Source: a virus
Taxonomy: Duplodnaviria > Heunggongvirae > Uroviricota > Caudoviricetes
DNA length: 64,000 bases
IMG/VR virus record: IMGVR_UViG_3300032038_000031
Span: 42,370-106,369 of that record
Direction: 5' to 3' (one strand)
Shown here: positions 13,935 to 57,365 of the stretch, piece after piece
Layout of the letters: each line of letters begins with the position of its first letter
Numbering within the stretch: position 1 is the first letter of the stretch
Made by a program: the position numbers and the translations under genes
The notes under the pieces: model-generated
Databases searched by the model: none
Told to the model about the DNA's origin: nothing
What the model saw: only the letters and a program-made list of their open reading frames with translations

Positions 13935-14075
13935 ATCTTTCTGCATTTTAACATCACAATTAGCATAATTTGGATATAATCTTTTAGCTGTTGATTTTAA
14001 TGCTAATTTAAATAAATCATAATTTGGTTCACCAGGATTCCGATTAACCCCTTTCATACATTGAAAAATTACACA
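13935..14075 (-). CDS. nrdD: NrdD exon 3 (CVIFQCMKGVNRNPGEPNYDLFKLALKSTAKRLYPNY...)
   Basis: strong match to NrdD segment 'IFklKeGVNfNeGDPNYDLF.LA...aKR.fPNF'; the listed 102-aa ORF 13791..14099 is this exon read through into intron. Confidence 0.65.
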
Positions 14076-14513
14076 CATTTTGTACCGTTGCTTTCGCAAT
14101 ATTTTAACACTTATTAAAAAGTCGGATTAGACTATATCATTACTAATATTTATAAATATTAGTACAAGGCACTTCGGAACTATATCGCTATAGCCCTACT
14201 CCCATAAGGGATAGTCGTTAGACCTTATTTTTGTTCTATGAAATAATAACCATTAATAGGTTTTTTATCTTGAACTCTTCTCCATAGAGTTGTAAGACTA
14301 ATATTATATTTTATTGCTGCTTTTGTTATAGATGGAAAACTTTCTATATATACACCATTTAGAACAAAAATCTTGGCACAGGATTGTCATATCTTTCGAC
14401 TTAGAGTTTCCCTGTTAGCAGAAATATTTCAACAGTCATTTCCTACTATATTTTATTTCCACACCCGTCTCTGACGGTTCACCTTGTTTTACTTCCCCAG
14501 TAGATTATATATT
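14076..14513 (-). mobile_element. ORF-less group I intron 2 of nrdD (~438 nt) with decayed endonuclease remnant
   Basis: exon ...TSIFP(ccT)|...|(aaaatG)CVIFQ; R-like UAACGACUAUCCC and S-like GCGAUAUAGUUCC elements at 14160-14220. Confidence 0.65.
14226..14385 (-). pseudogene. start-less remnant of HNH endonuclease C-terminal DNA-binding (NUMOD/IENR-like) domain inside intron 2
   Basis: frame ...KIFVLNGVYIESFPSITKAAIKYNISLTTLWRRVQDKKPINGYYFIEQK* resembles tails of 7606..8091 and 13226..13789 products; no start, stop-bounded. Confidence 0.45.
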
Positions 14514-14639
14514 AGGGAAAATACTTGTTTTATGAAATTTGCCTACACCATTTAAGCATCCGTTTAATATTGCTCGAATAACAAGTCTTCCTTCTGGTAA
14601 TGTACAAGTTCCTAAATTGATAGATGTAAAAGGCAATTG
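14514..14639 (-). CDS. nrdD: NrdD micro-exon 2 (42 codons: QLPFTSINLGTCTLPEGRLVIRAILNGCLNGVGKFHKTSIFP)
   Basis: not in ORF track; matches T4/E. coli NrdD 'QVPFSSINFGTDTSPEGRMV...GETPIFP' as recalled from memory; bounded by intron-terminal G (tattG|CAA) and exon-terminal U. Confidence 0.7.
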
Positions 14640-14859
14640 CAATAGTTATTAACCATAGGCTTTTTATCCTATGCTCTGGAGATTTCTCTCATTTTCATCG
14701 AATGGTCAATTCCATTCCAGTGTAGCGTACATCTTCACCTTCGCCATTACGCGGTCAGGGTGGACACTCTTGACGGGATTATATTTATTCACCCGCTACG
14801 CGTTACGGTGACTCCTAGCCTTTCGCTATCTAGAAGTTTACCTCGGTATTGTCATATTT

Positions 14860-15693
14860 TTAACATTTTAAATTATAATGCTGTAAGAAATTATCATATA
14901 TATCTTTTTTGCGATTAAGATAGATAGTTGAATAATTATACATCCAATCTCCAAATGTTTGCATATCTTCAATATTTTGGATTTTTAATTCACTTAATTG
15001 TCTATCTTTATAATCATAAACCAATGGCTTTTGTTTTAAATTAAGATGTTCAAAACTATAGTTAGAAATATCTTCCATTAATTTATGAGTTCCACAAAAA
15101 CTAATAGAATGTAAAAATCTATTATGTCCATCTTTATTAGGACTTGGTTTTGCCATTATACTACCATCACCATCAAATATTCCTCTAATAAGATGAGGCA
15201 TCATTTCATATGAAACTTTAGGAAGATAGGTGCTGTAACTTTTTCGAGGAACCACCCCATATTTAGCAAGGTCTTCTGCCATTATATTGCTACGAACAGC
15301 TATCTGTCCACATCCTCTGCCATCATGCCCTACTGAAGTATTAGCGTGTAAAACCTCTTTAAATTTTTCAAGCATATATTCATCTTTTAAATTCAATGTA
15401 ATGGATATAGAGGCTTGTCTTCCAGTATCATCTTTAAAAACATTTCCATCTGAAATAAGTAAACCTAAAAAGTAAGCCTTTGCTTCTTCGTTTATATCTT
15501 GAAAGAAATGCTCTCTCATGTTAGGATTATTTAATTTTGCTTTAGTATATTTTGGAACATCCTTTAATATTTTAGTTACTGTTGGATGACTTAATTCATA
15601 TTTATCTTCAACTTGTTTTATAGTCATCGGTTGAGATAAATAATATTTAATAATTTCTTGCTTTAATTCTTCTGTTATAATTTTTCTTGGCAT
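14860..15693 (-). CDS. LAGLIDADG homing endonuclease (two-motif)
   Basis: YFLGLLISDGNV and RGIFDGDGSI motifs; RBS AAAGGAGGA. Confidence 0.8.
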   Translation of the reverse strand: MPRKIITEELKQEIIKYYLSQPMTIKQVEDKYELSHPTVTKILKDVPKYTKAKLNNPNMREHFFQDINEEAKAYFLGLLISDGNVFKDDTGRQASISITLNLKDEYMLEKFKEVLHANTSVGHDGRGCGQIAVRSNIMAEDLAKYGVVPRKSYSTYLPKVSYEMMPHLIRGIFDGDGSIMAKPSPNKDGHNRFLHSISFCGTHKLMEDISNYSFEHLNLKQKPLVYDYKDRQLSELKIQNIEDMQTFGDWMYNYSTIYLNRKKDIYDNFLQHYNLKC

Positions 15694-15707
15694 AATAATG
15701 TCCTCCT

Positions 15708-15736
15708 TTGCAATAATATTATATCAAAATATTTAA
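15708..15736 (-). promoter_or_regulatory. consensus sigma70 promoter TTGACA-17-TATAAT inside intron 1, upstream of LAGLIDADG ORF
   Basis: minus strand TTGACAagtgttaaatattttgaTATAAT. Confidence 0.6.
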
Positions 15737-15846
15737 CACTTGTCAAATATTTTCTTGCATTATTATACCAAAATTAAAAACTTAGAGTTTACCGATTTTG
15801 CCCAATTTTTTACTAAGAATTTCTTCTTAGGGAAACCAATTTGTTA

Positions 15847-16791
15847 ATTTCCGCTTCTTGACTGCAGTGTGTTGAGATTATGGAACATCCCTTCTGCAGC
15901 TTGTTCGACTTCCTTTTTGGTCATATCCATTGCATATTTATAAGTGTCAGGACATTCCTTATAAATTTCAGCATCTATACTCTTAGTGGGATCAATTCGT
16001 TCAATTATGTACTGTTGATAATTGCTCTCGAGTAAAGGTTCTGATATATACTTTAAACCATCAACATAATGCTTATAAAAACTCTTTCTTACATATGGAA
16101 CCATAGTCCAATCTAGGTGAGAAGCAGAGACTCCCCCAAATTGCTGAAGACTTTGTAATTGGAATGTTACCGCCAATAGTTGAAAAGCTGTACTTACACT
16201 GTTTGCAGGTCTAACATCTGCTTGTCTAGTATTAAATCCTTTTTCTAATAAATCATCAATAGGCAATGTTAAACAATTATGCATTCCTATTGAATAAGAA
16301 TCTAAATCATGAACATAAATACGATTATGTAAATGATTATATCTCATACGAGGAGACATTACACGGTTTAAAGCATCATCTTTTAAAATAATATTAGAAG
16401 CTTCACCTTTTCGACCCCCAAAAGACATCTCATCTAAATTTGCATTTTGATTTTCAATATTTGCCCCTAATAATTTATTTCTCATTTCTTTTGTTAAAGG
16501 GGTCTTTTGATTTCGATTTCGATTTCGTTCTTCTCTATAAAGAATAAAAGCTTTAGCAACATCTTTTCGTTTAGTTGCCATTAATCCTTTTTCAACTAAA
16601 TCTTGAATTTCTTCTACTGTTAAAAGCTCATCTTGTGCTTTTGTTTCAATATAAGTAGCAATATTTTCTGATTTTGTTAAAGCGTAATCAGAAATATTCC
16701 CATCAATAGCACAAAAAGCTTTTTTTATAGCGGAAATAATCTTTTCTTTGTTGAATTGTTCTATTCTTCCATCTCTTTTTTCTATAATCAT
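15847..16791 (-). CDS. nrdD: NrdD exon 1 (ATP-cone + N-terminal catalytic region)
   Basis: MIIEKRDGRIEQFNKEKI ATP-cone; ...NLNTLQSRSGN matches NrdD 'NLN..SRaGsQ'. Confidence 0.85.
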
Positions 16792-16860: not shown

Positions 16861-17529
16861 TTAAAATAATTTGACATTATTAAAATATTCTTCTAGTTCT
16901 TTTACCTTATCAGTAAAATCATAAGTAAATATATTAATATCATCATCATTTTTAAAACCAATACAATTAAAATCTATCTCTTTAAAATCTTCTACATCAC
17001 TTAAAAATCTTCTACAAATTTCAACACAGCTTGGATTTTCTTCTCGATTTAAGCATCTCTGAAGTCGAGTCTTTGAAGGTACTGAAATAAAAACGGGGCA
17101 AACTAGTAAATTAGGATCTCTTAATAAACAATGAATACTTTCAATATCATAACAACCAATATTAATTTTTTCTTTATCTAATTTATCTTTTTCTGTCCCA
17201 TAAAACCAAGAATTATAACAAACTGCTTCAATTAATAAATGCTTATCTAATAAGATTTCTTCAAAAGTTTTTTTATCTACAAAATAATAATCTTTTTTAT
17301 CAACCTCATAATCTCTTTTAGGACGAGAAGTTGTTCTAATAATATTAGCAAAAGTATTAGGAAATTGTTTTAATAATTGATTTTTAATTGTATCTTTTCC
17401 CGCTCCGCTTGGTCCAAATAAAGCTACAATTTTAATTTGTTTTTCTGTTGGGGGAGGACTCCAATAAGCGAGATATTCTCGCTTAAAGGTTTCTTCATTC
17501 ATCGAAATAGTTTCCTTGTTGTCTATCAT
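16861..17529 (-). CDS. guanylate-kinase-like nucleotide kinase
   Basis: GPSGAGKDT P-loop + TTSRPKRDYEVDKKDYYFV (GMK 'TTRPpRpgEvdGvdYhFv'). Confidence 0.6.
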   Translation of the reverse strand: MIDNKETISMNEETFKREYLAYWSPPPTEKQIKIVALFGPSGAGKDTIKNQLLKQFPNTFANIIRTTSRPKRDYEVDKKDYYFVDKKTFEEILLDKHLLIEAVCYNSWFYGTEKDKLDKEKINIGCYDIESIHCLLRDPNLLVCPVFISVPSKTRLQRCLNREENPSCVEICRRFLSDVEDFKEIDFNCIGFKNDDDINIFTYDFTDKVKELEEYFNNVKLF

Positions 17530-18911
17530 GTCTAAGTGTTAATTCTCCTTTTTCATTTATATCTTCAATTAAATATAGTTGATGAGTAGGAGTATGTTTA
17601 TAAGTTTTTGTAACAAAAGTATCTTCTCTTCTATACCCAGTTACTAAAATCTTCCTACCTCTAGTGAACCAAGATTTTTCTATTACTTTTTTTACTCCAT
17701 CTTCATTAATTGCAGAAATTTGTCTTTTATACATTGCATAATACTCTTTAGTAAATTTAACAGTTACAACTCCTGTTGGGGTTAATAGTACAACTGATGA
17801 ACGAGCATCATTTTTATCTAATACTGTTCCTGCAATCTTATAAGTTTTCCAAATAGGAATATCATGTCCTTTTCTTTTAAAATAATATTCCGCCTGAGGT
17901 TCTGATGGTAATTGGAAAAAATCAACTAAACCATACTGATGAGCATTAACATTAGCTAATTCATGAGCATGACTATAAAAACATACACTTTCCATTTCCC
18001 AAGCAGATATTGTACCAGAACCATATTTTTCCCATTCCTTTAGAAAAAGACATTTATTATACTGCTCTAAAATATCTTTTTGATTTTCTTTTAACCAATC
18101 TCTAATATAATCCATTGAATTTTTATAATACTTATCCCAAATTTTTATTGGAATAAGTAAAACATTATCTTGCATTTTTATAGAATCTATAATAGGAGAA
18201 AAATATTCTTCTAATTTTTCATTATCTATTAATAAACATTTCTTATCTGTTGATATTGTACTGTAATATCCATCTTGAATATACACGCTATGTTTAAAAA
18301 ATTTATTAATTTGATATATACCAATTTCTTTTTTAAATTTAGAAGGAATTAATTTTTCTTTTAACAAACCATTAAAATTCTGTAAAGTTAATTTATTCTT
18401 TTTTCCACAAATACGATCAATATAATAAATTAAAATAGCTTTACGAGGAGCTTTAGGAAAAATTTCTTTAGCCCATTTTTCTGTATTATCAAAAGCTCCA
18501 GCTTTAATCAATGAAATCATAACTGTTTTTGTTTGAGGGCATCTGTTTAAAAAATCTTTTAAACTCTTATAAGGTCTTTTTGCAATAATTTCTTCTACTA
18601 CATTTGTTCCTACTTTATTAACTCCTTTTAAACCAAATAAAATAGCATTATTTTTAATATCTGGGCGGAAACCATAACTAGAATTATTTATATCTACTAA
18701 AGACACTTTAACACCTTTAGATGTAATTTTTCCTATTGCCCCCGCAATTTTCCCATAATTAGTACTTTTTTCTTTTTGGTTTTTTATATCTTCTTGTTCT
18801 AATGAACCACTATTTACAATTAAACAAGCAGTATTCCAATAAATTGAATTCCAGTGAGTTGATAATATTACAGTTTGCACTCCTATAAAGCTATAAGCTA
18901 ATGCGTGAATA
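17495..18911 (-). CDS. dnaE: DNA polymerase III alpha (DnaE-like) exon 4
   Basis: begins (I)HALAYSFIGVQTVILSTHW ~ E. coli '[20 protein letters not shown]'; 'VKVSLVDINNSSYGF' ~ DnaE 'vlpPDVN.S'. Confidence 0.7.
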
Positions 18912-19069: not shown

Positions 19070-19990
19070 TTATTCAAAATATTTTTTAAAAATTTCTTTA
19101 TTTTTTTCTAAATTAGAACGAATAGGGTAAATTAAATATTCTTGTTTATTTGCTCTGCCTTGTCCTAATTTTTTAATTGTGCTTTCTGCTTTTCCATATT
19201 TTTGAGCTATTTTTACTAAACTATCAGGAGAAAAAATAATATCTTTTAAACAAGGAATAATCCAACTTTTATCTGCGCAACCTTTAATTATAAGAGGATA
19301 TTTTTCATTTGGATCAAAATAATATTTCCCCGTATTTATCTTTGATAAAAATCCAGCACTTTTTATATCCCATTTTTTTTGTATTTCAGAATAAGATTTT
19401 CCAGATTTTATATCTTCTTTTATTTTTTTAATATCATCTTTTGTAAATCTTCCTTCTCCTGTGAAGTCTTTTTTTAATGGATAATTTAATTTTGGATTTT
19501 TATAATTGATTCCAGTATTAATATTACTTAAAAAAGTTCTTGTTAATCTTGGATTAAAATATTCAATAATATCATCATATTTTTCTCCATTAATTAATTT
19601 CTTTTGTATTAATTCTATTTCTTCTCCTGTAAAAATTTTACCTCTATCTTTTAATTCATCCCAAGAAAGTTTTTCTCTTAAATGTTCATCTCCACCAAAA
19701 GTAATATTATAACCACCTTGACTAATGTGACTTTTCTTTTCTTTTATCCAATATTGTTCTTTTTCGTTTGCTTCTTCCTGAGTTAAATTTGATTCAATAA
19801 CTTCAAAAGTAAAATTTTCAATTCCATATTTTCTAATGGCATTATGTAAAGGATAATTATAACTATGACTATTTTTATTATAACTATCACTTTTATGACC
19901 ATTAAATCTTTTTTGCAAATTATTGGTTTGTCCAACATACTGATGACCGTTTATTTTATTCGTATAAATATAAATAAATTTATCTCTCAT
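19070..19990 (-). CDS. GIY-YIG homing endonuclease
   Basis: FIYIYTNKINGHQYVGQT... GIY-YIG motifs; paralog of 11592..12512. Confidence 0.8.
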   Translation of the reverse strand: MRDKFIYIYTNKINGHQYVGQTNNLQKRFNGHKSDSYNKNSHSYNYPLHNAIRKYGIENFTFEVIESNLTQEEANEKEQYWIKEKKSHISQGGYNITFGGDEHLREKLSWDELKDRGKIFTGEEIELIQKKLINGEKYDDIIEYFNPRLTRTFLSNINTGINYKNPKLNYPLKKDFTGEGRFTKDDIKKIKEDIKSGKSYSEIQKKWDIKSAGFLSKINTGKYYFDPNEKYPLIIKGCADKSWIIPCLKDIIFSPDSLVKIAQKYGKAESTIKKLGQGRANKQEYLIYPIRSNLEKNKEIFKKYFE

Positions 19991-20054: not shown

Positions 20055-20140
20055 GATTTTACCCTCGTTAGCATATATTTCTATCTTTGCCAGAGATATT
20101 AATGAAATATATACCCCCATGATGAGTGGGTTAAGTGTGT
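20055..20140. repeat. intron 5'-region repeat (similar to 47400..47465)
   Basis: cc(c/t)cgttagcatatat...atatacccc(c/t)atgatgagt(g/a)gg(t)taa in dnaE intron C and gyrB intron. Confidence 0.65.
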
Positions 20141-20153
20141 GAGCACCATTACA

Positions 20154-20531
20154 ATGCTAAAGGAATATCCCATTTGCGGTCCAATTCCGCATTTCCAAAT
20201 ATAATTACCTAAACAAGGACTCTTTGCTTGTGCTAAAGTTTTTTCTTTTAATTTAGGAATTTCATTCATCAATTTTTTACCTACAGTTTTACGAGCTTGG
20301 TTAGCTTCAGCTAAACTAAAATTACATATATTAGGATCCATTAACATTAACATTAACTGCTCCTGTGAAGGAGGTACGCCAAAAGAAGACTTAAAGTAAG
20401 GTTCTACAATTTTTTGTTCTTCTTTAGTTAATCCATATTTATCCATTTCTTGATACCATAAATTAATATCTTTTTTAAAACGGATATATTTTTCCATAGG
20501 CGTTTCTTCGCCTTTTTCTGCAGTCATAAGT
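20154..20531 (-). CDS. dnaE: DnaE exon 3 (...EKYIRFKK...SFGVPPSQEQLMLMLMD..FSLAEANQARKTVGKKL...GYSFS); 5' boundary +/-6 nt
   Basis: matches DnaE 'TYGvivYQEQvMqia..GfslgeADlLRRAMGKK' and 'GYGFN'. Confidence 0.65.
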
Positions 20532-21876
20532 CTCATTAATCCATTAGCATCCGATAATTCTAAAATATTTTTTGGCTTTATTTTTTTTGCCGCTTGACTG
20601 CCAACTTCTGATTCAACATTTATATTCGATGAGAGACGCTACTCTCTCACCCGTTCTCTTATGAACTGCTTACAATTTCTTGTAAGATTAGACTATATCT
20701 TCTAAGAATCCCATTTCCACTATCAATCGCTTATAGTGTACTCCCTTTCGGGATAGTCGTTGAACATTAAACTTAACCATTCTTTTATTTCTTCTTCTGA
20801 ATTTGTATAATCAAATTGTTTAAATTTTATATCATTATCTAAACACCATTGCTTTTTTATAGCATCACTTTGTTGAATCTTTTTTAATTTTTCTTCTCCT
20901 CCAAAATGTTCATAAGCTTTAAAGTGTTGTTCACCATGATATTCAATAATATAATTTTGTTCAGGGAGATAAAAATCAAATCTATATGAATGACCATCTA
21001 AAATGAGAGGATATTCTCTAATATATTTAACTTTTAATTCGTCTAAATAATATCCAATTATTTGTTCAAATTTTGAACCTAAATTGCAATATTTACATTT
21101 TATAGGTCCATCAATTAAAGATATTCCCCATCTATAGTCTTCTTTTCCACAGTTAAGACATTTTATTTTATATTTAGAATTGCGATTAGTAAAAACTTCA
21201 TTTTCACATAAAATAAAGTTTTGTTTATTTAAGAAATGCCATTTTTCAATAAATTCACTATTTGTGCAATTTCTTGTAAATTTTTTCTCTGGATTACAGT
21301 TACATTTTTTATGACCATTACTAATATTGCCATAATATTCGTAACTAATTTTTCCGCAATTTAAGCATTTTACTTTTATTGGTTTTTTTGTGTCTATAGA
21401 TTTAGTTTTACTTAATTGATAGCTGTCTTCGTCATTAAAAAGAAAATAATAATGTTTTTTTTGTAAAACTAGATTTATTTTTTCTGCTTTAATTTTTCTT
21501 TTTTGACAAGGACATTTGATTTCTCTCCGAATAAAATTTCTTTTTTCATCCGAATGTTGTTCTCCGCAATAACTACATTGCCAATTAAAAATATCTCGAT
21601 TTTGTAACTTTAGAAAAAAATCTTGATTTTCCATAATAGCTGAGTTATCAGGATTTAATATTATTAATTGTTGCATCCATTATTCACATCCTTTTTTGTT
21701 TCTATATGATGTAAAAAATGGTTAAGTTTCTTTGCTGCGAATTGTCCAATTTTTTTCATTTTTACCATCCAATATTTATTACAATATCTGCTACACTATA
21801 CATCACTGTTAGCTGCGGTAGAAAAAACTTAAGGAGTTTCTCGCAATTAAGGATTTTTTATTTCAGCTTAATTCTC
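20532..21876 (-). mobile_element. group I intron B of dnaE with endonuclease ORF (boundaries +/-6 nt)
   Basis: R element GUUCAACGACUAUCCC (20745-20760) and S element AAGAUAUAGUC (~20690-20705) downstream of ORF; exon homology break at ...DLFQL / LMTAEKG. Confidence 0.6.
20723..21676 (-). CDS. intron-encoded endonuclease: triple Zn-ribbon N-region + PD-(D/E)xK/Vsr-like C-domain
   Basis: three C..C..C..C modules; 'YIIEYHGEQHFKAYEHFGG' shared with 8214..9074. Confidence 0.5.
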   Translation of the reverse strand: MQQLIILNPDNSAIMENQDFFLKLQNRDIFNWQCSYCGEQHSDEKRNFIRREIKCPCQKRKIKAEKINLVLQKKHYYFLFNDEDSYQLSKTKSIDTKKPIKVKCLNCGKISYEYYGNISNGHKKCNCNPEKKFTRNCTNSEFIEKWHFLNKQNFILCENEVFTNRNSKYKIKCLNCGKEDYRWGISLIDGPIKCKYCNLGSKFEQIIGYYLDELKVKYIREYPLILDGHSYRFDFYLPEQNYIIEYHGEQHFKAYEHFGGEEKLKKIQQSDAIKKQWCLDNDIKFKQFDYTNSEEEIKEWLSLMFNDYPEREYTISD

Positions 21877-22215: not shown

Positions 22216-23115
22216 TTAAATATTTGTCCATGTTTTTCTATTTATAATATTTCTAACAGATGTTGTTGATACTTGAGGGTACAACTGATAGATTTTTGAA
22301 TTGCTAACTCCTTCATCGTGGAGTTTTCTAATATTTAAAACATCTTTTTCTGTTAGTTTAGCTCGTCCATTATTAGAACCTGCTTTTTTATTATTTTTTA
22401 TTTGACTATGCTTTTTTCGATTTTCTTCTGAGAACACTTCTGGCATAACCAATTTATATTTATTACCATAATAAATATTCCAAAAACTCCATTTATCTTT
22501 GAACCTGTTTTTATATGGTTTAAAAGCTTGTTCCCAATCAATGCCTTCTGCATACATATTCCTTAATTGCACAACTTCGTTATAAGTTAATTTATTTCGT
22601 GAAGTAAATTGATTAGAAAATTCTGAATTAAATGGATAAATTGGAGTTGAGGTTTTTATATTTTTGTATGTTTTATCTAAATAAACATCTTTAAAGGCTG
22701 CATAAGAAATTTTATCTGAAAATTTTTCATACAATACATATTCAGGAATATCTCTATGGTCTTTTATATATTGAGCTTCTTCATTAGTTAAAACAGCTTT
22801 TCCATTATCTTCACCATATCTTTTTTTAAGTTCAGGCTGAATAAAATTCATACCACCTTTAGCTACATTATAACCATTTGGAACTAAAGTATTTTCCTTT
22901 TCTATATGTTCCTGTTCTAACTTAGATGCTTCTTCAAGCGATAAATTAGAAAATAAAACTTCAAAAATAAAATTATCTACCCCGTATTTTTGAATAGCTT
23001 TTCCAATAACCATTTTTTTATTATATTTATGATTATTCCATCTTTTTTTATAATCATTTGTAATACCAATGTATTTTTTATTATTTTTTTTATTCGTTAT
23101 TCTATATAAAAACAT
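22216..23115 (-). CDS. GIY-YIG homing endonuclease
   Basis: MFLYRITNKKNNKKYIGITNDYKKRWNNH GIY-YIG; RBS AAGGAGAAAG. Confidence 0.8.
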   Translation of the reverse strand: MFLYRITNKKNNKKYIGITNDYKKRWNNHKYNKKMVIGKAIQKYGVDNFIFEVLFSNLSLEEASKLEQEHIEKENTLVPNGYNVAKGGMNFIQPELKKRYGEDNGKAVLTNEEAQYIKDHRDIPEYVLYEKFSDKISYAAFKDVYLDKTYKNIKTSTPIYPFNSEFSNQFTSRNKLTYNEVVQLRNMYAEGIDWEQAFKPYKNRFKDKWSFWNIYYGNKYKLVMPEVFSEENRKKHSQIKNNKKAGSNNGRAKLTEKDVLNIRKLHDEGVSNSKIYQLYPQVSTTSVRNIINRKTWTNI

Positions 23116-23338: not shown

Positions 23339-25246
23339 ACCCGCTGCTTCACACATATGAAGATCATATTGAGTAATAATTTCTCCACTAGGAGTTTTCA
23401 TAAAACAGCCAAATGTATATGGATCTTCATCAAATAAAATAACGCCTGATGCATGAGAACCTCTTTGCTTAATAAGTCCTTCTATGCTGATCATAATTTC
23501 AAACAATCTATCATATTTATTTACTTCATTGATAAATGAAGTTACTGGCTTTCGACCTTTATTAGGATTACCATACATGACATCTTTTAATGTCCATAAA
23601 AATCCTCTTTCTTGTGGAATAAGTGAAGATAAATATTGAGCCGTATCGACATCAATTCCATCTGGATATTTTTCACTCGTATATCCTCGACAAGCTGTTA
23701 AAATAGCACTTTTTGTGCTCTCTGTCCCAAAAGTCGCAATTAAAGTACAACCCAAATTTTTCTTACTTAATTCATCAATTTCTGGAAGAAACTTTGCTCC
23801 TCTTTCTTCTTTAATCTTTTGTAAAATTAAAGGTCTTTTTGATGGACAAAGATCAATATCAATATCGCCTAATTCTGACCGAGCCTTGTTGAGATACCTC
23901 CAGAAAGGAAGCTCCCATTTTATCGGATCAAGCTGTGTGATTCCTAACAAATAATGATTCAACCCTGAACAAGAAGAACCTCTTCCCGCTCCAACAGTAC
24001 TTCCACAATCCCAAAATAAATCTACATAATGTTGTAAAGTAATTGGGTATGAAAACATATTAGTTTCTAGTACTTTACTAATTGTTAATTTAATATCCGC
24101 TTCTTCTTCTAATCTTGATAAATAAATACCATGTAATTGTTTATCAATAACTTTTTGTTTTTCTTTGTCTAACAATGATAAACAACATTCATTAATCCAA
24201 TAACGATGATGTTGATCATCACTACTATTAAGAAAACTTAAAGTAGGGAAATTTTTATTATCAACTAATAAAGAAATATTATTTTTAGGATAATTTTTAA
24301 CCTCTACTTTTGGAATAGTTTGTTTATGTCTTAAACTATAATTTTCGATTTTATCAAAAATTTCCATTGAATTATTACATAATATCTTATATTGTTCTAA
24401 ATCAATTCCACTTGGAATTAAATTTTCTAAAATTTCTTCTTCTTTTTGTAAAAAAGCATATTGATAAAAACTATCAACTTCTCGTTCGCCATTTTTAGAA
24501 TTTAAATACGCTTTATGAACATATCTATCTTCTGGTCTTAAAAAATGTGAGTCTGTACCAATTACAACTTTTAAGCTAAATGACTTTGCTATTGATAATA
24601 GTCTTTTATTTACTTCAATTTGTTCTTTTGATTGCCCTGGAGCAATTTCTATATAAAAATCATCATGAAATAAAGATATGCAAAATAAAATAAATTTTAC
24701 AATCTTGTTATGATATAAAGTAATATCATCTACAATTTGATGTTTTTCTGCTTCTATTAAATTTTTTGTTAATGTTGAAAGCTCTCCACCTAAACAAGCA
24801 GTTGACGCAATTAAACAATTAGGATATTTATTTACAATTTCTTGTAAATCTGAGTATAAAGTAACTACTCTTTCTTGTCCTCTATCAACAAAAGAATTCA
24901 TCCAAGCTCTTGAAGATAATTCTCTTAAAGCTCGATGACCTTTTTTATTTTTTGCTATTAAAATAAAATGATAATATTTTTGACCTTTTTCTCTTGTTTC
25001 ATTTAAATAAATTTCATTACCTAAAGCAATTTTAAAATTTGGATACTTTTTTTGAATTTCTTCACTGTATATATTTACTTCCATATGAGAACATAAGGCA
25101 TCGTGATCTGTAATCGCAATGCCTTTTAATCCTATCTCAATAGCTTTATCAATTAAAGCCTTTGGTTGAGTTATACAATCAAGAAGTCGAAGATTTGAAT
25201 AACAAGTATGAGAATGAATTTCCATTCTTGGAATTATACTATTCAT
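23339..25246 (-). CDS. dnaE: DnaE exon 1 (PHP domain + palm)
   Basis: MEIHSHTCYSNLRLLDCI...ITDHDAL PHP motifs; ends ...TQYDLHMCEAAG. Confidence 0.75.
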
Positions 25247-37523: not shown

Positions 37524-38495
37524 TTAACCATTCCCCTTTGTCATATTATAATTTCCAAAAGCATTTGCTTGATAAAGATCAATAAAAAATTTTTCTTTTT
37601 TATCTAATTCTATTTTATTATTACATTGTTCTAACAATTCAAAAGTAAAATTCCATAAACCAAATTCTTGCATATCTTTATATAATCTATTTGAGGCGGG
37701 GGCATCTATTCCACAACCGCATTTCATATGTTGCTTTAATCTGTTAGCTACATTCACGCTTTGTCCAATGTAGCATAATTTATTTTGAATATTGGTAATT
37801 TTGTAAATACCACAAACTGCATCAGTTGTACCTAAAATTCTATCACATAAAATTTTAGATTTTTTTTGAAAGAATTGTGACCAAATTACTTTATTTAAAA
37901 TAATTGGCTGAGATAAAGTTTTTTTACATTGTTGTAATTTAACTATATCAGATAATTCTTCTTTTGTTATATCTATTTTATAAAAATTTATTTTATTTTC
38001 TTTTTGTTCTTCTCTTATTTGTGCCTGTCGTCCCGCAGATAAAGAGTTTTTTAAATCAATAACCTCTTGTTTTGTAGATTGATAATCATTTTGTAGAATA
38101 GCAATTTTTTGGTCATATTCTTTTTCTACTTGTTGATAATGTAATTCCAAAGTATTAGAAAAGTTTTGAAATGATTGTGTTGATTTATCAGAAGTTTTTT
38201 TTAATATAGAAATATTCTTTTCTAATTGTTGTAATTCTTTAGTTTGTTTATCCAAAATATGCTTTTGTTTTTCAAAAAGAATTTGCATATTATCATAAGC
38301 AATATTTTGTTTTTTTAAAGTTTCTTCCTTTTGTAAGATGTTTTCTTTTAAAACATTTTGTTGTTGTGTTAATTCATTTATTTTAATTCTTTGATTTTTT
38401 TTATTTCGTCTTGTTTTTATTATATTAAATAACGCATAAAAAATTAACCAAAGACTTACTATTATTAATATTATACAAACAATTTTCATTAACAA
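37524..38495 (-). CDS. membrane-anchored coiled-coil protein with C-terminal GIY-YIG nuclease domain
   Basis: N-terminal TM helix (IVCIILIIVSLWLIFYALFNII), ~200 aa heptad-rich K/Q/E region, C-terminal CGIYKITNIQNKLCYIGQS...R..E...N. Confidence 0.6.
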   Translation of the reverse strand: MLMKIVCIILIIVSLWLIFYALFNIIKTRRNKKNQRIKINELTQQQNVLKENILQKEETLKKQNIAYDNMQILFEKQKHILDKQTKELQQLEKNISILKKTSDKSTQSFQNFSNTLELHYQQVEKEYDQKIAILQNDYQSTKQEVIDLKNSLSAGRQAQIREEQKENKINFYKIDITKEELSDIVKLQQCKKTLSQPIILNKVIWSQFFQKKSKILCDRILGTTDAVCGIYKITNIQNKLCYIGQSVNVANRLKQHMKCGCGIDAPASNRLYKDMQEFGLWNFTFELLEQCNNKIELDKKEKFFIDLYQANAFGNYNMTKGNG

Positions 38496-50565: not shown

Positions 50566-51075
50566 TTATTTTTCTAGTATTTTTTTAAGTCTATTGATAA
50601 ATACAGATTTATCTTTAGCTTGAGAGGCTTTTTCTTTTAATAGTCTTGCTTCATTAATTCTATTAATTCTTCTTTCAGGGGATTCTTTAATTCGTTTATA
50701 TAAAGTTGTAATAGCATTTTGAATAAAGATCTTTTCTTGTTTTACTTTGAATAAATAAGGTTTAATTTTTTTATTTTCTTTATTTAATTCTGCTATTTGC
50801 AATATTTTTATTTGCCCATTTAGAATTTTCTTTTTATCTCTTAATGCCAAAAGTAAAGCTTTATCAATAGCTAATTCTTCCCCAAACAACGGTGATTCAT
50901 ATGCTTCATCTTCTGGATGTAATTTAGAAATACCTCTATATCTTCCATATGGTGTTACAACAGTAGCAAAACCAGAGTGTAGCATTTTAGAATATTCACT
51001 ATGTTCTACTTCATACTTAAAACATTGAGTTTTATCTTCATTATAAAATACATACATATTTTTCTTTTTCTTCAT
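50566..51075 (-). CDS. hypothetical protein
   Basis: 169 aa ORF. Confidence 0.4.
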   Translation of the reverse strand: MKKKKNMYVFYNEDKTQCFKYEVEHSEYSKMLHSGFATVVTPYGRYRGISKLHPEDEAYESPLFGEELAIDKALLLALRDKKKILNGQIKILQIAELNKENKKIKPYLFKVKQEKIFIQNAITTLYKRIKESPERRINRINEARLLKEKASQAKDKSVFINRLKKILEK

Positions 51076-51613
51076 TATTTATTTAACTCCTTGTTTTTTA
51101 AAAAATTATAAATAAACTCCAAAGAAACTGGAGTATTATTATTACTATCAATTCCTACATGGTATCCAAGAATATTTGGATTAATCGAATTAGTTTGATG
51201 AGTATGACCATATAAAGAAAAAACTTTATTATAATCATAATTATAAGTTAATTGCGGATAATGACTTAATAGGAAAATTTTCTTTTTATATTTTATTACA
51301 TCCATATAAGTAATATTTTCAAAAATTTGATTATTCTTATAAAATTCAACTTTTTTATCTGTATCGTGATTTCCTCTAATTAAAATCTTCTTCCCATTTA
51401 ATGATGTTAAATAAGACTTAATTTTTTCTAAATCATTTCCTAAAGCCATATCTCCTAAAATGTATACTACATCTTCAGGAAGTACAACTTGATTCCATTT
51501 TTCAATTAAATCATTATTCATTTCTTCAACATTATTATATCCTCTTGCTTGATAGATAAAACTTTTATCGTGGCACAGTCACAGATGCAAATCTGAAGTA
51601 AACCAAATTTGCA
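51075..51613 (-). CDS. calcineurin-like metallophosphoesterase with in-frame TGA at codon 12 (possible pseudogene, recoding or sequence error)
   Basis: ATG at 51613 after AGGAGGTGA gives MQIWFTSDLHL*LCHD..EEMNNDLIEKWN..ILGDMA..GNHD..GHTH; motif I (SDLHL) lies upstream of the TGA; TGA sits in 6-bp near-duplication ctgtga|ctgtgc. Confidence 0.5.
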
Positions 51614-51617
51614 TAAA

Positions 51618-51843
51618 ATCACCTCCTTATTGGAGTAGTAATAGCATCTATACTATTCATTCCATTTCTTATTCTTGCATTTACTGTTGCTTGTTTTATA
51701 TTATAAATTTTACACCATTCTGATATGCTATGTCTTACACCTTCTATTACAGGATGTCTTTTTTCATATTCATTAATAACATCATCTATTGTTAATTCAG
51801 AAGTATCAATAATGTTTCCATTAGATATTATTCCATCCTCCTT
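51618..51843 (-). other. 74-codon start-less ORF in same frame as PNK, separated from it by a single TAA; HTH/NUMOD-like
   Basis: KEDGIISNGNIIDTSELTIDDVINEYEKRHPVIEGVRHSISEWCKIYNIKQATVNARIRNGMNSIDAITTPIRR*; no ATG/GTG/TTG in frame; its TGA overlaps RBS of next gene. Confidence 0.35.
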
Positions 51844-52410
51844 TTAAAATGTTTCCTCAGAAGACTTCCATTCAATAAATGTTGGCTCATTCGCCCCTTT
51901 TAAATTTTTCTGAATGTGGTATCCATGAGGGTTAGTTAATACTTTATATATTGCTTGTATTTTATTATCTTCATTAAAAAGTGGCATACAAATAGTATTA
52001 GCCATTGATAGCATAACAGAATTAGGAACTTTCAATCTACCTTTTCTTTTATCATTTCTTTGACTACAAACTTTTAATGGAGTATTCATTACAAAATAAA
52101 TAATTCGATAATTTGTTAAAAAATAATCAATATTTTTTAATACTTTTTTTCTAGATTGTTTAGATAGATGTGTAGCATCTAATAAAACATTAGTATTCTC
52201 TTGTAAAGATAAAACTGCTGAATTAATAAATTCTCTAAATACTAAATCTTCTTTATCAAAATAGCCATCTTCATCTTTTATTTTAGAAAAACGAATATCA
52301 TCTCTTGAAATATATGTATAATGAAAATATTCACAAAATTTCTTTGCAAAAGTAGTTTTTCCAGAGCCAGGGATACCGACCATTAAAGCTAAAATAGGTT
52401 TATTACTCAT
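51844..52410 (-). CDS. polynucleotide 5'-kinase (T4 Pnk kinase-domain-like P-loop protein)
   Basis: ILALMVGIPGSGKTTFA Walker A, D..R, 188 aa kinase-only. Confidence 0.6.
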   Translation of the reverse strand: MSNKPILALMVGIPGSGKTTFAKKFCEYFHYTYISRDDIRFSKIKDEDGYFDKEDLVFREFINSAVLSLQENTNVLLDATHLSKQSRKKVLKNIDYFLTNYRIIYFVMNTPLKVCSQRNDKRKGRLKVPNSVMLSMANTICMPLFNEDNKIQAIYKVLTNPHGYHIQKNLKGANEPTFIEWKSSEETF

Positions 52411-52774
52411 TATTCTTCTCCTTTAAACAAATATTTTTTTTATTTGTATTCCAACATTTTCCATCAATACAACATAAACATTTTTGTTCTGTACAAATTG
52501 GTAAATCTTCTACTGGGATTCTTTGTCCATCTTCTGTAAAACGACCTAATTTAAACTCCATTAAAAAATTCTGATAAGAATAATTACTAAAAGGTCTTAT
52601 TTCACAATGATTTGTTTCTTTTTTACAATGAATACAATATAATTTTTTTAAATGACCAGATTCTCTAAAAGCATTTTTCTTTCTTGGAATAGGAATACCT
52701 TTATTGCCACACTGAGTACAATAGAAATCAGAAATCAACATATTATTTACTTTACACATAATTAAACACCTCAT
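52403..52774 (-). CDS. Zn-ribbon protein (start likely MRCLIM.. at 52774)
   Basis: CTQCGNKG...CIHCKKETNHC; listed N-terminal 32 aa is translated promoter/leader repeat (IFFKKNDIIIIENK). Confidence 0.4.
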   Translation of the reverse strand: MRCLIMCKVNNMLISDFYCTQCGNKGIPIPRKKNAFRESGHLKKLYCIHCKKETNHCEIRPFSNYSYQNFLMEFKLGRFTEDGQRIPVEDLPICTEQKCLCCIDGKCWNTNKKNICLKEKNNE

Positions 52775-53879: not shown

Positions 53880-54605
53880 TTAATTAATCTTAATAATTTT
53901 ATTATATAAAAGATAAGCATTATATTTTAATTGCTTATCATCGTGAAAGTGACCAAAGAACCATTGTTTATAATTAATTTTGTTTTTAACTTTCTCTAAA
54001 AAATGTTCCATTGTATAATCTTCTTTTAAATCTGGTATTTTTAAAAATAAATATTGAAGTTGAGATAACCAAGAGAAAGGTGCGGTATGAGAAAAAACAA
54101 AATCAAACTGATTAGAAATATTATCTATCGCCATTAAAATATCTTCTTGTTCTTCTTTAGATAGCTGTTCTGTTTCAAACCATTTCCATCCCATAAGTAA
54201 TCTATATTCTTTATCTATTGAATAAGCTCCGCCAATACCTAAACAAGAAAACTTATCAATTTTAAAAATACCATCTACTGGAAAAATAACATTAGAAGCA
54301 ATTTTATTTACATATCCATAACATTGAAATTTTTCTATCCATTCATAAGTATAAGCTTTCTCTTGTGTTATACAATCAATGGTATCTTGAGGTCTTTTTT
54401 CGTGATTGCCGTTAATACAAATTAATGTAATAGGAATTTCCGCAAGTTTTTTAAAATTACAGTGTTCTCTTAAATCCTCATTACAATTTAAACCAATATC
54501 TCCAAGAAGTACTATTACATCTTCTTTTGAAGTATTAGCATTTTTACAAAAAGAAATTAAAAAGTTTAAATCTCCATGACAATCACCCTTTACAAAAATT
54601 TGCAT
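53880..54605 (-). CDS. calcineurin-like metallophosphoesterase
   Basis: KGDCHGD, LGDIG, NGNHE, GHFH motifs. Confidence 0.65.
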   Translation of the reverse strand: MQIFVKGDCHGDLNFLISFCKNANTSKEDVIVLLGDIGLNCNEDLREHCNFKKLAEIPITLICINGNHEKRPQDTIDCITQEKAYTYEWIEKFQCYGYVNKIASNVIFPVDGIFKIDKFSCLGIGGAYSIDKEYRLLMGWKWFETEQLSKEEQEDILMAIDNISNQFDFVFSHTAPFSWLSQLQYLFLKIPDLKEDYTMEHFLEKVKNKINYKQWFFGHFHDDKQLKYNAYLLYNKIIKIN

Positions 54606-55258: not shown

Positions 55259-56554
55259 TTATTCAATTTTAAAATCTTCTTCAGCTTCTTCTATATCTGG
55301 AGTTACCGCATTATCTTTTATAATACCTTCTAAAATCTTAAATTCCAAATTTTTATGTTTATATGCAGTAAAAATAGGTTTATTTACTACTCTAACTACA
55401 ACCCCTTCTCTAATATGAGTTTTCCCGATTGGATCAGCACCTACAGAAAACATTTCAGCAAGTTCCATAATATCTCCAATATTATTCTCTGTAACAACAA
55501 GAGTTAAAAGATGAGGAACACAATCTACCCCCATTTGTTTACATCTGTATCGCATAAATTCAGGTGTATATTCTACAACTTCTCCATCTTCATTAGTCAT
55601 AGTCATTCTATAGACATAAGCATGACAAGAACCAATAGGTTCTCCATAATTAAAAACTGTCTTTTCTCCATAGCGATTAATAAAATCTTGACCAATCTTT
55701 TTATTATCACAAGAAGCCATAATAGGAGTATCATCATGTACATATCCCACTACTTCATAATAAACAGTTTCTCCAAACCACAATTTATTTTTAAAAATTT
55801 CTGCGGTTTTTATTCTAAAATCTTGAGTACCATAAAACCCTTCATTGTTATTATTTACTATTGTGCGGCGAGTACCAGTAATATAATCTTTTTTATAAAT
55901 TGGAGAACCCTCTCTATGAAAAATTCTATCTAAGAAACTTCTTTTATAACCTTTTAAAACTGGTAAATATCCTGTTCTTTGACTTGTTCCATGCATTTTA
56001 ATAGAAAAGTCTAGAATATCCCCAACTTTAATATTATTGATATAATAAGCTAATTGTTCAGTATCTTTATGCTCTTGGAATAAAGGAGCTATATTTATTT
56101 TCTTTTTAGTTTTTTTAGGAATATTTAGATTTGGACGAGAATGAGCTTTATGCTTTGGGATGTACTTAGTTGCAATAACAACCCCATTAAAAGTTTCTAC
56201 CTGTTCCCCTTCTTTTAATAAAGATATATCTCCAAAAGGAGCTAAACACTTTAATGGAAGGAAAAGTCCATCTGAAGGTTCTCCTCTTAATTTAACAGTT
56301 GTTACATGTCTTTTCTTAGGGTCTAAATATCCGCCAATATTTTTACCATTTTCATCTAATTGCCTTAATAAATTGTTTTGCATACAAAAATCATAATTTA
56401 ATTGTCCATCTGTTGGGAAATAAACTCCTAAATCACCTTCTTTAAATGTATTATCAACACAAACAGTATTACCAAAGCAATCTGCTAATGTTAATCTATC
56501 TGCATTCGGATGAGGACGAACATTTTTTAATCTAGTTACATAACAATGATACAT
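55259..56554 (-). CDS. ATP-dependent RNA ligase (Rnl2/Rnl5-like) with N-terminal tRNA-binding OB (EMAP/Trbp111/CsaA-like) domain
   Basis: N-term VRPHPNADRLTLADCFGNTVCVDNTF (HPNADkL tRNA_bind signature); motif I SIKMHGTS (KxHGxN), later EVVGYV, NEDGEVVEY, EGVVVRV..KHK ligase motifs. Confidence 0.6.
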   Translation of the reverse strand: MYHCYVTRLKNVRPHPNADRLTLADCFGNTVCVDNTFKEGDLGVYFPTDGQLNYDFCMQNNLLRQLDENGKNIGGYLDPKKRHVTTVKLRGEPSDGLFLPLKCLAPFGDISLLKEGEQVETFNGVVIATKYIPKHKAHSRPNLNIPKKTKKKINIAPLFQEHKDTEQLAYYINNIKVGDILDFSIKMHGTSQRTGYLPVLKGYKRSFLDRIFHREGSPIYKKDYITGTRRTIVNNNNEGFYGTQDFRIKTAEIFKNKLWFGETVYYEVVGYVHDDTPIMASCDNKKIGQDFINRYGEKTVFNYGEPIGSCHAYVYRMTMTNEDGEVVEYTPEFMRYRCKQMGVDCVPHLLTLVVTENNIGDIMELAEMFSVGADPIGKTHIREGVVVRVVNKPIFTAYKHKNLEFKILEGIIKDNAVTPDIEEAEEDFKIE

Positions 56555-56573: not shown

Positions 56574-57365
56574 TTAGTAATAATATAAACCAATCATTAC
56601 CTGTGCATATGCGGAAAATACATTTGTTCTAAATTTAGTTAATAAATGATTAAATTTATCATCATTTCCTTCTGGCACTAAAGTAAAACGACTTTCTAAA
56701 GACCAAACATCTGTTACAATTTTTTGAGATAAGGAAATAGCTTCTTTAGGGGTTATAAGTCCCTCTTTAATTTTAAAATATTCTTCTCTATCACAAGATT
56801 GTAAGCAATCTTTAAAATTACAACCATAATAATAAGTAAAAATAAGATCCCTTAAAAAGTACATATGAGCAAGATCTTTAGTATAATACACTTTTTCATC
56901 AGCTAATGAAGAGTTATGAATTTTACTGTCTAATGATCTTATCATTCCAAAAACAGCATTATAAAATTTTATTGGATGCCAATAAGCTAAATCTTCTCGT
57001 TTTTGTTTTAGCATATTCCAATAATCTTCATAATAAGAATCAATAATATAATAATCTGTAAATAACAATTCTAAATAATTAAGACTTTTATTAAAAAATT
57101 TTGGTAATAATCTATAATCAATAATATTAATCTGGTCTTTACCAAAAGCAATTATCTCATTGCGGGGCTGCTGTGTGCTTGTAATTTCTTCAAAACTTGG
57201 AATAATTATTACTTTTGAATCAATATCTGATTGACTATTATCAAGGTTATAATTTTGACTTCCAATTAAAAATGTCCCTAAGATTCCTGTCTTTTCAGAC
57301 AAAAATCTTTTAGCACATTTCTGATGCTGTTCTAACCTATTTAAAATTTTTTCTTTTTTAGTCAT
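56574..57365 (-). CDS. minimal nucleotidyltransferase (Pol-beta superfamily)
   Basis: LIGSQNYNLDNSQSDIDSKVII = hG[GS]x9-13Dh[DE]h signature. Confidence 0.55.
   Translation of the reverse strand: MTKKEKILNRLEQHQKCAKRFLSEKTGILGTFLIGSQNYNLDNSQSDIDSKVIIIPSFEEITSTQQPRNEIIAFGKDQINIIDYRLLPKFFNKSLNYLELLFTDYYIIDSYYEDYWNMLKQKREDLAYWHPIKFYNAVFGMIRSLDSKIHNSSLADEKVYYTKDLAHMYFLRDLIFTYYYGCNFKDCLQSCDREEYFKIKEGLITPKEAISLSQKIVTDVWSLESRFTLVPEGNDDKFNHLLTKFRTNVFSAYAQVMIGLYYY

Follow-up and report, generated by a model that had tools for sequence, protein, structure and literature searches.

An in-frame stop codon in a phage RNA-repair phosphoesterase gene as part of an endonuclease-cassette scar and candidate +6 ribosomal stop-hop

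Does a stop codon at codon 12 of a phage metallophosphoesterase (MPE) gene mark a dead gene, an error in the data or a site at which the ribosome is redirected? The question was raised by a stretch of 64,000 nucleotides (nt) from a Caudoviricetes virus (IMG/VR record IMGVR_UViG_3300032038_000031, positions 42,370 to 106,369; the whole stretch is referred to below as the window). An earlier note on this DNA had reported that a kinase open reading frame (ORF) ends in a TAA at 51846-51844 and that a second in-frame stop forms codon 12 of the adjoining MPE gene, and both stops were confirmed by the sequence. The locus proved to be the scar of a homing endonuclease gene (HEG) cassette; the reading developed below, which is given an even chance of being correct, is that the 6-nt insert carried by the cassette would guard against self-cleavage and would be skipped by a +6 ribosomal 'stop-hop'. 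Gene coordinates are window positions and all genes of the locus lie on the minus strand. The features, in the direction of transcription, are as follows.

51844..52410, minus strand: polynucleotide kinase (PNK)-like P-loop kinase of 188 amino acids (aa), with its native TAA terminator at 51846-51844.
51811..51843, minus strand: relic of the ancestral MPE translation start, AAGGAGGATGGAATAATATCTAATGGAAACATT, matching the empty alleles.
51619..51819, minus strand: 3' remnant of a GIY-YIG HEG, residues 248-313 and the TGA stop, located by tblastn with the HEG of relative L028.
51622..51628, minus strand: Shine-Dalgarno AAGGAGG of the replacement MPE start, read directly from the sequence and overlapping the HEG stop codon.
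51582..51614, minus strand: cassette-borne replacement MPE 5' end, MQIWFTSDLHL (motif I), ending at the proposed take-off CTG at 51584-51582.
51585..51614, minus strand: predicted 12-bp RNA hairpin with arms AUGCAAAUUUGG and UCAGAUUUGCAU, spanning the start codon to the codon that precedes take-off.
51576..51581, minus strand: 6-nt insert TGA CTG, made up of the stop (51581-51579) and a repeated Leu codon, the proposed landing codon (51578-51576).
51075..51575, minus strand: MPE body, opening with CHDKSF..., ending in the stop at 51077-51075 and retaining intact motifs II-V.

The MPE frame was open from the ATG at 51614 to the terminator at 51077-51075 except for the TGA at codon 12, which stood in the context ctg tga ctg tgc. 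Motifs I-V (DxH, GD, GNH[DE], H and GHxH) were found in frame as DLH, LGD, GNHD, SHYP and GHTH. The body matched Pfam Metallophos with an E value of 2e-11 (PF00149 and PF12850 were matched) and PHROG 547 phosphoesterase with an E value of 2e-44, and its structural relative in the PDB was aq_1665 (1xm7). The uninterrupted ORF by which a calcineurin-like MPE is recognized was not found in the window, where the TGA falls at codon 12. Intact alleles lacked the insert and read GAT TTA CAT TTT TGC CAT at this point; insert-free MPE allele A was GATTTACATTTTTGCCATGAT. The uninterrupted MPE of relatives, MKTFFTSDLHFCHDKDF, was 177 aa long, as is the predicted hop product of the window. The earlier note had described a gene that opens with MQIWFTSDLHL and has TGA at codon 12 within a 6-nt near-duplication, and had expected that deleting 6 nt would give the spacing of the homologues; the description was accurate, and removal of the 6 nt gave D-x-H-x-x-H, as in the homologue N-termini inspected and in aq_1665, the only exceptions being 'WL' code-4 translations of this same stop. 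Following the landing codon, the residue was C, N or G, in each case one known in intact homologues, giving DLHLCHD, DLHLNHD or DLHLGHD.

Identical ctgtgactgtgc (in one case ctatgactgtgc) was present in 13 independently assembled contigs of the window's phage clade, from different samples, drawn from Logan, ENA and one 132-kb contig of an NCBI metagenome-assembled genome (MAG). Diverged versions of the MPE stop were also found in other phage lineages, and all 25 cassette-bearing MPE loci recovered, the window included, carried CTN-TGA/TAA-CTN. The comparison with related phages that had been asked for in the earlier note, under which homologues might share the stops and show separate expressed products, was borne out as to the recurrence of the MPE stop. 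A degenerate scan with the middle codon left free (GATTTGCATCT NNNN CT NNNN CAYRAT) returned no sense variant of that codon among its MPE matches, stops only. Whatever tree joins the four cassette groups, three or more independent switches between TGA and TAA are needed and no change from stop to sense, for which the neutral probability was estimated at ∼0.001-0.01.

The Leu codons flanking the insert were always CTN, though Leu codons in the window are TTA in 68% and CTG in 0.9% of cases. Because the flanking codons are always CTN, the insert stop is always followed by C, a context found at 4 of 57 real terminators in the window. Take-off and landing codons were CTG/CTG in the window, CTT/CTT, CTT/CTA and CTA/CTG elsewhere, and CCG/CCA in the kinase gene of relative L087 described below; by their codon sequence, both members of a pair are predicted to be decodable by the same peptidyl-tRNA. 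The Leu(CTN)-stop-Leu(CTN) flanks suggest hopping rather than readthrough. Other codon-stop-synonymous-codon sites were sought throughout the window, and the scan gave ordinary gene ends only.

The window locus is the scar of a mobile HEG cassette that entered the 5' end of a phage RNA-repair MPE gene. In the mechanism proposed, an insert in the motif I codons would break the HEG's own target, and the restored gene would not be re-cut. During translation, with peptidyl-tRNA-Leu on CUG and the A site occupied by UGA-C, a poor terminator, this tRNA would unpair and then re-pair with the next CUG. Decoding would resume at UGC to give ...DLHL-CHDK..., a full-length and normally spaced MPE, by a +6 'stop-hop'. 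Bypassing of the gene 60 type employs a 5' stem-loop that forms again once the ribosome has passed. The predicted hairpin of the window had a folding energy of −14 kcal/mol (z = −2.8), and L033-type cassettes had a similar one (z = −3.3); in L057 and L032 it was weak, and intact alleles lacked it. Its relevance to recoding is suggestive only.

The full cassette runs from a resident MPE 5' stub to the HEG, then to a ribosome-binding site (RBS) overlapping the HEG stop, and then to the replacement MPE 5' end with the insert. In L028 the order was kinase, an optional 'sequestin' gene, the orphan stub MKTFFTSDLHFC-KM*, an intact 313-aa HEG, the HEG TGA overlapping AAGGAGG, and ATGCAAATTTGG...CATCTGTGACTGTGC followed by CACGATAAA.... 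In the intact cassettes of L028, L057 and L100 the orphan stub matched the native MPE N-terminus of the recipient and the replacement 5' end was a diverged second copy. The insert is thus physically linked to the HEG and moves with it; the left boundary of the cassette in the resident gene lies at codons 11-14, beside the insert position in the restored copy. The cassette was present in at least four diverged MPE backgrounds, and its sequence at the stop in relatives was as follows.

L023: CTG TAA CTG, with a different MPE body.
L032: CTT TGA CTT AAT, with an MPE 52% identical.
L033, L044, L045, L055 and L075: CTT TAA CTA/CTT AAY; the orphan stub of L033 is MIYFSSDLHL.
L057 and L100: CTT TGA CTT GGG, with an intact HEG and a stub such as MGKIFVTSDLHFGH-ELV*.
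L087: CTT TAA CTA GGA, with a decayed HEG.

Between lineages the HEG 3' end differed by ∼4% (hand count), and the MPE bodies had proportions of synonymous and nonsynonymous differences (pS and pN) of 0.54 and 0.21, ∼28% overall (rough estimate). Because the cassette is far more alike between lineages than the MPE bodies are, its spread is read as horizontal, by homing. Conversion-tract ends varied within the window clade (AGT vs GAT at codon 17, GTT vs ATT at codon 28), and among relatives more than 90% identical the site was found empty, sequestin-filled, with a full HEG or decayed. The kinase-MPE intergenic spot is a hotspot, and a gene for a 120-aa 'Sequestin' (PF21825) occupied it in some relatives, with or without the HEG cassette (L009:478-840, L010:4562-4924, L012:856-1218, L015:370-732 and L028:1034-1396); none was present in the window.

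A nucleotide search of the locus against GenBank phages gave no match, and the cassettes of the relatives gave irrelevant Lak-phage HEG matches only. Utilizing tblastn with the MPE and HEG against the same phages, only distant uninterrupted MPEs and generic GIY-YIG enzymes were obtained, and no cultured phage with the motif. Matches to an 'x2 hypothetical protein' (Phass-1, RP13) were rejected as just overlapping neighbours. Exact-pattern scans for the window-type 5' end in JGI metagenome, IMG/VR viral and GTDB genome contigs found none, and the degenerate pattern in GTDB genome contigs gave chance matches in unrelated frames only.

In the window, positions 51819-51619 were 98.5% identical (tblastn) to residues 248-314 of the intact 313-aa L028 HEG (L028:1579-2520; the intact HEG of L057 lies at L057:2569-3507), which carried Pfam GIY-YIG (PF01541, E 9.5e-10), NUMOD1 and I-HmuI_NUMOD-like domains. 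The window piece matched PHROG 3377 'HNH endonuclease' at positions 98-143 (E 1.6e-6) and gave no Pfam match; the GIY-YIG catalytic domain was absent, the remnant comprising residues 248-313 only. No start was present before codon 62, and the old MPE ATG was out of frame by one base. By this alignment the stretch is a pseudogene fragment from which the catalytic domain and start were deleted. The deletion removed the resident stub and the first 247 HEG codons, with its junction in a shared ATCTA(A)TGGAAAYATT microhomology of which two copies were joined. A different internal HEG deletion was found in L020-L022; in L019 the kinase end was joined to the last 15 HEG codons; in L027 and L029-L031 just 35 nt of the HEG were left; in L009 18 HEG codons lay behind the sequestin gene; and in L023 the HEG was frameshifted. 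Five independent HEG deletion derivatives were recognized in the window clade, with the RBS, ATG and insert kept in all of them, and AAGGAGG was retained in every cassette derivative, even with the HEG almost wholly deleted.

The kinase upstream matched Pfam AAA_33 (E 4e-17) and PHROG 505 polynucleotide kinase, with Pnkp1 (4xrp, E 5e-10), the C. thermocellum Pnkp kinase domain (4gp6) and T4 Pnk (1ltq) as best PDB matches, and its Walker A P-loop was GIPGSGKT; by P-loop and similarity it is assigned to the polynucleotide 5'-kinase type (Pnkp / T4 Pnk). Most relatives, among them the carriers of intact MPE alleles, had a kinase of the same 188 aa, and its end ...ACATTTTAA was the same in insert-free relatives with an intact MPE (L013, L014). 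In the empty alleles L014 and L016, ATGAAAACATT came straight after AAGGAGGATGGAATAATATCTA, the two supplying the RBS and start for an intact MPE (MKTFFTSDLHFCHD), and L017 was near-identical. The window keeps the ancestral RBS and ATG (51821-51819) and then diverges, the ATG now heading a 9-codon ORF, METLLILLN*. Judged by these alleles, the kinase TAA is the ancestral native terminator and there is no kinase-helix-turn-helix (HTH) fusion; the readthrough fusion offered in the earlier note is refuted by relatives without the downstream piece, whose kinase ends at the same native stop. The 74 sense codons that the note had counted in the kinase frame after the TAA (51843-51622), ending in a TGA (51621-51619) that overlaps the RBS AAGGAGG of the next gene (51628-51622), were all found as described, and consist of 8 intergenic codons and the last 66 codons of the HEG. 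The claim that the stretch holds no start codon was wrong, an ATG being present at codon 62 (the M of RNGM). The guess of an HTH/NUMOD-like sequence was right in kind, the piece being the DNA-binding C-terminus of a GIY-YIG HEG, though here it is a pseudogene fragment. Other relatives carry different remnants, out of frame or shorter, and the frame shared by the kinase and the HEG tail is an accident of one deletion.

A stop flanked by synonymous codons was also found in a second gene. In L087 the kinase Walker A sequence was GGC ATT CCG TAA CCA GCA TCT GGC AAG, or GIP*PASGKS (MCGIP*PASGKS). This kinase stop site (L087:2844-2900; IMGVR_UViG_3300031760_000039, the same contig as L050) lies beside the stop-bearing MPE, and AAAGGAGTGATGATTAATG upstream of the kinase resembles the RBS/HEG-stop block of the cassette. 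When relatives of this kinase stop were sought by pattern scan, L087 alone was returned. In L097, a close relative of L087 with a cassette-type RBS and 5' end, both inserts were absent, and the predicted hop products were encoded exactly, as DLHLGH and GVPASGKS. Ratios of nonsynonymous to synonymous substitution rates (dN/dS) between L087 and L097 were 0.16 (MPE) and 0.08 (kinase), with dS 0.22-0.48 and no other lesion. Values from within the L033 subfamily (0.17-0.37) were rejected as evidence of selection after insertion, the cassette being much younger than the gene bodies. Decay was evident in the L087 HEG remnant, which differed from L057 by ∼33%, had indels and had lost a Trp codon to a stop. 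Next to it, a block of 69 nt (RBS, 5' end and stop) differed from L057 at 4 positions only: Leu/Phe, TGA/TAA, CTT/CTA and GGG/GGA (Fisher p = 2e-5), and 3 of the 4 would be silent if the stop is hopped. That the MPE and L087 kinase inserts are the first natural stop-hops, and examples of a general trick in which the DNA target is destroyed and the ribosome restores the protein, is put at slightly below an even chance; the same tentative claim includes the suggestion that 6-nt inserts, each made of a stop and a copy of the adjacent codon, may be set within invariant catalytic motifs by HEG cassettes or by phages defending against them.

The closest database proteins, P0001 and P0002 (93-97% identical), read DLHLWLCHD and their contigs, which are counted among the 13 assemblies, carry the same TGA; the W at the stop comes from code-4 gene calling on short contigs. 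Public collections hold mistranslated copies of this kind with W at the in-frame TGA (P0001, P0002, P0021, P0133 and P0135), and in P0002 'RWNHD' conceals a second nonsense codon. Code-11 calls yield 148/149-aa 'MPEs' that are N-terminally shortened and lack motif I. P0132 was identical to the 148-aa truncated ORF of the window and was found on ∼127 kb contigs; the window therefore belongs to a ∼127-132 kb gut phage.

Four other explanations of the stop were weighed. An error of sequencing or assembly, or a recent mutation private to one genome, is of negligible probability: the insert recurs in 13 clade assemblies made with different assemblers from different samples and in diverged cassettes, and no support for an error was found. 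Both ideas stood in the earlier note; the first fails on the same stop in 13 independent assemblies and the second on the stop being a conserved part of a mobile endonuclease cassette. A host or phage code in which TGA is Trp (code 4) is highly improbable, the TAA variants having all but refuted it. Protein MCI7527318.1 does come from a 'Mollicutes bacterium' MAG, and several database proteins are translated with W at the stop, yet Trp is encoded by TGG everywhere (175 such codons in long ORFs of the window), the 57 long ORFs end in TAA (49) or TGA (8), and the in-frame TGA of the MPE is unique among the window ORFs, which are densely packed on the minus strand. The equivalent codon is TAA in L023, L033, L044, L045, L055, L075 and L087, and NCBI called a 149-aa truncated ORF. 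The earlier view that code reassignment is unlikely thus stands, with TGG as Trp, TGA and TAA as terminators and TAA at orthologous sites. Readthrough by a near-cognate tRNA or host suppressor would give an active MPE with two extra residues, DLHL-X-L-CHDK, and is thought very unlikely. UGA followed by C is a leaky context, and gene callers gave 179-aa code-4 products (P0001, P0002, P0133). Half of the lineages have TAA at the same place, however, which rules out Trp-type decoding as a general answer; D-x-H-x-x-H is kept in all homologue N-termini inspected, code-4 translations apart; the two residues would be added inside motif I; and the repeated synonymous flanking codon is left unexplained. 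A tRNA scan of the window found none, and hence no suppressor tRNA, and an Rfam scan of the window gave no match, with no selenocysteine insertion sequence (SECIS) element or known recoding RNA. Selenocysteine was dropped on the existence of TAA variants and the lack of a SECIS match. CUU UGA C is the prfB frameshift site, and an RF2-type +1 frameshift there was rejected since the MPE frame beyond the stop is the zero frame. Reinitiation further downstream at an ATG, which would give a 148-aa product without motif I, was set aside, L057 and L087 having no conserved downstream start, as was two-piece complementation, the downstream piece having no start.

The remaining explanation, rather unlikely but the main rival of the stop-hop, is a hitchhiking null allele: the insert would block self-cleavage but kill a dispensable MPE, the HEG would drive the spread, and each invasion would be recent, which would account for ORFs of intact appearance. 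The MPE could be dispensable through a second MPE gene or be needed only in hosts with anticodon nucleases. Such an allele fits a cassette that is horizontal and younger than the MPE bodies hosting it, the coexistence of HEG-plus and HEG-minus alleles in the same populations, the paralogous Metallophos gene 2 kb away, and the existence of insert-free derivatives (L097), as expected if the insert is costly. It also draws support from L009, in which there is an extra plain nonsense change in GNHD (GGA to TGA) and a metal-ligand His is lost (H117Y), and from private substitutions, which by hand count were 9 nonsynonymous to 2 synonymous in stop alleles against 2 to 4 in intact alleles (one-sided Fisher p = 0.07). 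These last two observations also weigh directly against a stop-hop, together with the following. Unstimulated stop-hops run at a level of ∼1%. UAA is a strong terminator, and it stands at the insert in about half of the lineages. Only 11 residues precede the hop site, so that a nascent-peptide signal of the gene 60 type cannot act; take-off and landing codons are sometimes non-identical (CTT/CTA, CTA/CTG); and RNAalifold gave no alignment-level consensus for the 5' hairpin. The hop is a prediction from nucleotide sequence. Given horizontal movement of the cassette, MPE bodies may be intact simply through recent invasion; the L087 inserts could have been acquired recently by short-tract conversion; and the second MPE gene (53880-54605) might make the interrupted one dispensable. 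Unstimulated stop-hops have been described as low-level (bioRxiv 10.1101/2024.12.09.627546). What a null allele does not account for is a stop kept through at least three TGA/TAA switches without a sense variant, both flanking codons staying CTN Leu, the conserved RBS and 5' end beside a decayed HEG, the same codon-stop-synonymous-codon design in the catalytic motif of a second gene, and dN/dS of 0.08-0.16 between L087 and L097 with no further lesions.

A cassette insert skipped by a stop-hop would have its closest parallel in the T4 gene 60/mobA cassette (Bonocora et al. 2011, via bioRxiv 10.1101/2022.08.31.505936; Manning & Atkins 2022). In gene 60 the bypass insert confers protection from MobA and remains when the HEG is lost (bioRxiv 10.1101/2022.08.31.505936). 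As in T4, a free-standing HEG and a non-coding insert in an adjacent conserved gene travel as one cassette; the insert lies in metal-binding or catalytic codons, and the take-off codon is followed at once by the stop and is matched by the landing codon. In many cases the HEG has become a pseudogene or has been lost by deletion with the insert kept, some descendants lose the insert too, and GIY-YIG enzymes can be the mobilising nuclease. Gene 60 differs in its 50-nt insert, against 6 nt here (a gap of 3 nt), in its Gly GGA codons, against Leu CUN here and Pro CCN for the kinase, and in its target, a topoisomerase, against an MPE (and a kinase P-loop). There is no take-off stem-loop around the stop and no internal Shine-Dalgarno sequence, a one-codon gap leaving no room, and with only 11 codons before the site there is no nascent-peptide stimulus 14-30 residues upstream. 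There is also no two-ORF split with C-terminal and N-terminal extension (CTE/NTE) tails, the cassette supplying a whole replacement 5' end. Unlike the gene 60 bypass, the one described here is a candidate.

Synthetic +6 'stop-hops' in E. coli were reported by Weiss, Dunn, Atkins & Gesteland 1987 and O'Connor et al. 1989 (both as summarised in PMC5009743). Of natural ones 'no occurrences are known', matched-codon stop-hops (9 nt for one amino acid) being synthetic only (PMC5009743). The present motif resembles the synthetic sites in having matched or synonymous codons around one stop, an A-site codon that is slow to decode and a predicted product two residues shorter than that of readthrough. 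The synthetic sites were engineered in lacZ and of low efficiency, whereas the present motif occurs in nature, is conserved and accompanies a mobile element, and is a candidate only. The HEG resembles T4 Seg and I-TevI-like GIY-YIG enzymes in its N-terminal GIY-YIG, NUMOD and HTH modules, and phage GIY-YIG HEGs more generally in its patchy occurrence among close relatives, flank co-conversion and frequent decay. It differs from them in inserting into a coding region without an intron or intein and keeping the gene whole via a replacement 5' end; the window copy, unlike the complete HEGs of other phages, is the last 66 codons only. In Aeh1 nrdA/mobE (bioRxiv 10.1101/2022.08.31.505936) an HEG likewise lies in an enzyme ORF at a conserved site with function apparently retained. 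Reconstitution from two subunits is, in contrast, implausible here, the upstream piece being an 11-residue peptide and the downstream piece having no conserved start.

The locus lies in an RNA-repair module with an RNA ligase (55262-56554), a Thg1-like nucleotidyltransferase (56577-57365) and the Pnkp-like kinase. A second Metallophos gene, of 241 aa (53880-54605, minus strand), is located 2 kb upstream of the interrupted MPE. Immediately before the kinase is a zinc-finger protein (52403-52759, minus strand; PHROG 1257 'ribosome associated inhibitor A; zinc finger domain'), and the same protein precedes the kinase in the distant relatives L033, L057 and L087.

The genome is unusually rich in homing endonucleases, with the DNA polymerase and NrdD genes split by GIY-YIG, HNH and LAGLIDADG genes. 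The DNA polymerase appears in pieces between 17498 and 25246 (minus strand): a 636-aa ORF (23339-25246) corresponds to the N-terminal half of PHROG 405 and a 461-aa ORF (17498-18880) to the C-terminal part, and the piece at 20102-20536 matched the Pol III alpha finger domain. GIY-YIG endonuclease genes lie between the pieces at 19073-19990 and 22219-23115, and no group I intron was called by Rfam at the polymerase locus. NrdD (anaerobic ribonucleotide reductase) is split over 11592-16791 (minus strand) into 15847-16791, 13794-14099, 12763-13377 and probably 11592-12512, interspersed with an HNH endonuclease (13229-13816) and a LAGLIDADG protein (14863-15693). Further GIY-YIG domains were located by tblastn at ∼37536-37808 and ∼12216-12482.

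Other sites of related appearance were recorded among the relatives. In the IMG/VR contigs L038 and L039 (position 985 in each) an HNH/zinc-finger-like ORF reads ...VWKCLC*CGNTCEV... with TGT TAG TGT; the stop is at the normal residue position of C-x-C-x-C-G-N, which suggests TAG recoding or plain nonsense rather than a hop. At L075:1291 ATT TAG ATT joins open stretches of 114 and 170 codons in one frame with no nearby start. The 132-kb contig JALFPM010000064.1 (GCA_022785685.1, L020), binned as 'Mollicutes bacterium', is essentially the window phage and is either mis-binned or a hint of the host.

The T4 gene 60 bypass was long seen as an isolated curiosity. According to a major review, natural in-frame stop-hops are not known and synthetic ones work (PMC5009743). 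The present locus is a candidate natural stop-hop with a 9-nt motif, support across several phage lineages and insert-free sisters that define the product, together with a second instance in another enzyme, the L087 kinase, and a linked endonuclease. If the stop-hop is real, it would be a minimal and possibly ancestral form of the gene 60 bypass, and the simplest kind of recoding could evolve as a by-product of conflict between a selfish endonuclease and a host gene. It would also explain the truncated or code-4 mistranslated database proteins of the MPE family, and many phage 'pseudogenes' with a single in-frame stop beside endonuclease genes would deserve re-annotation. Even if the hop is refuted, the locus shows the entry of a GIY-YIG endonuclease into a coding region, without an intron, via a replacement 5' end.

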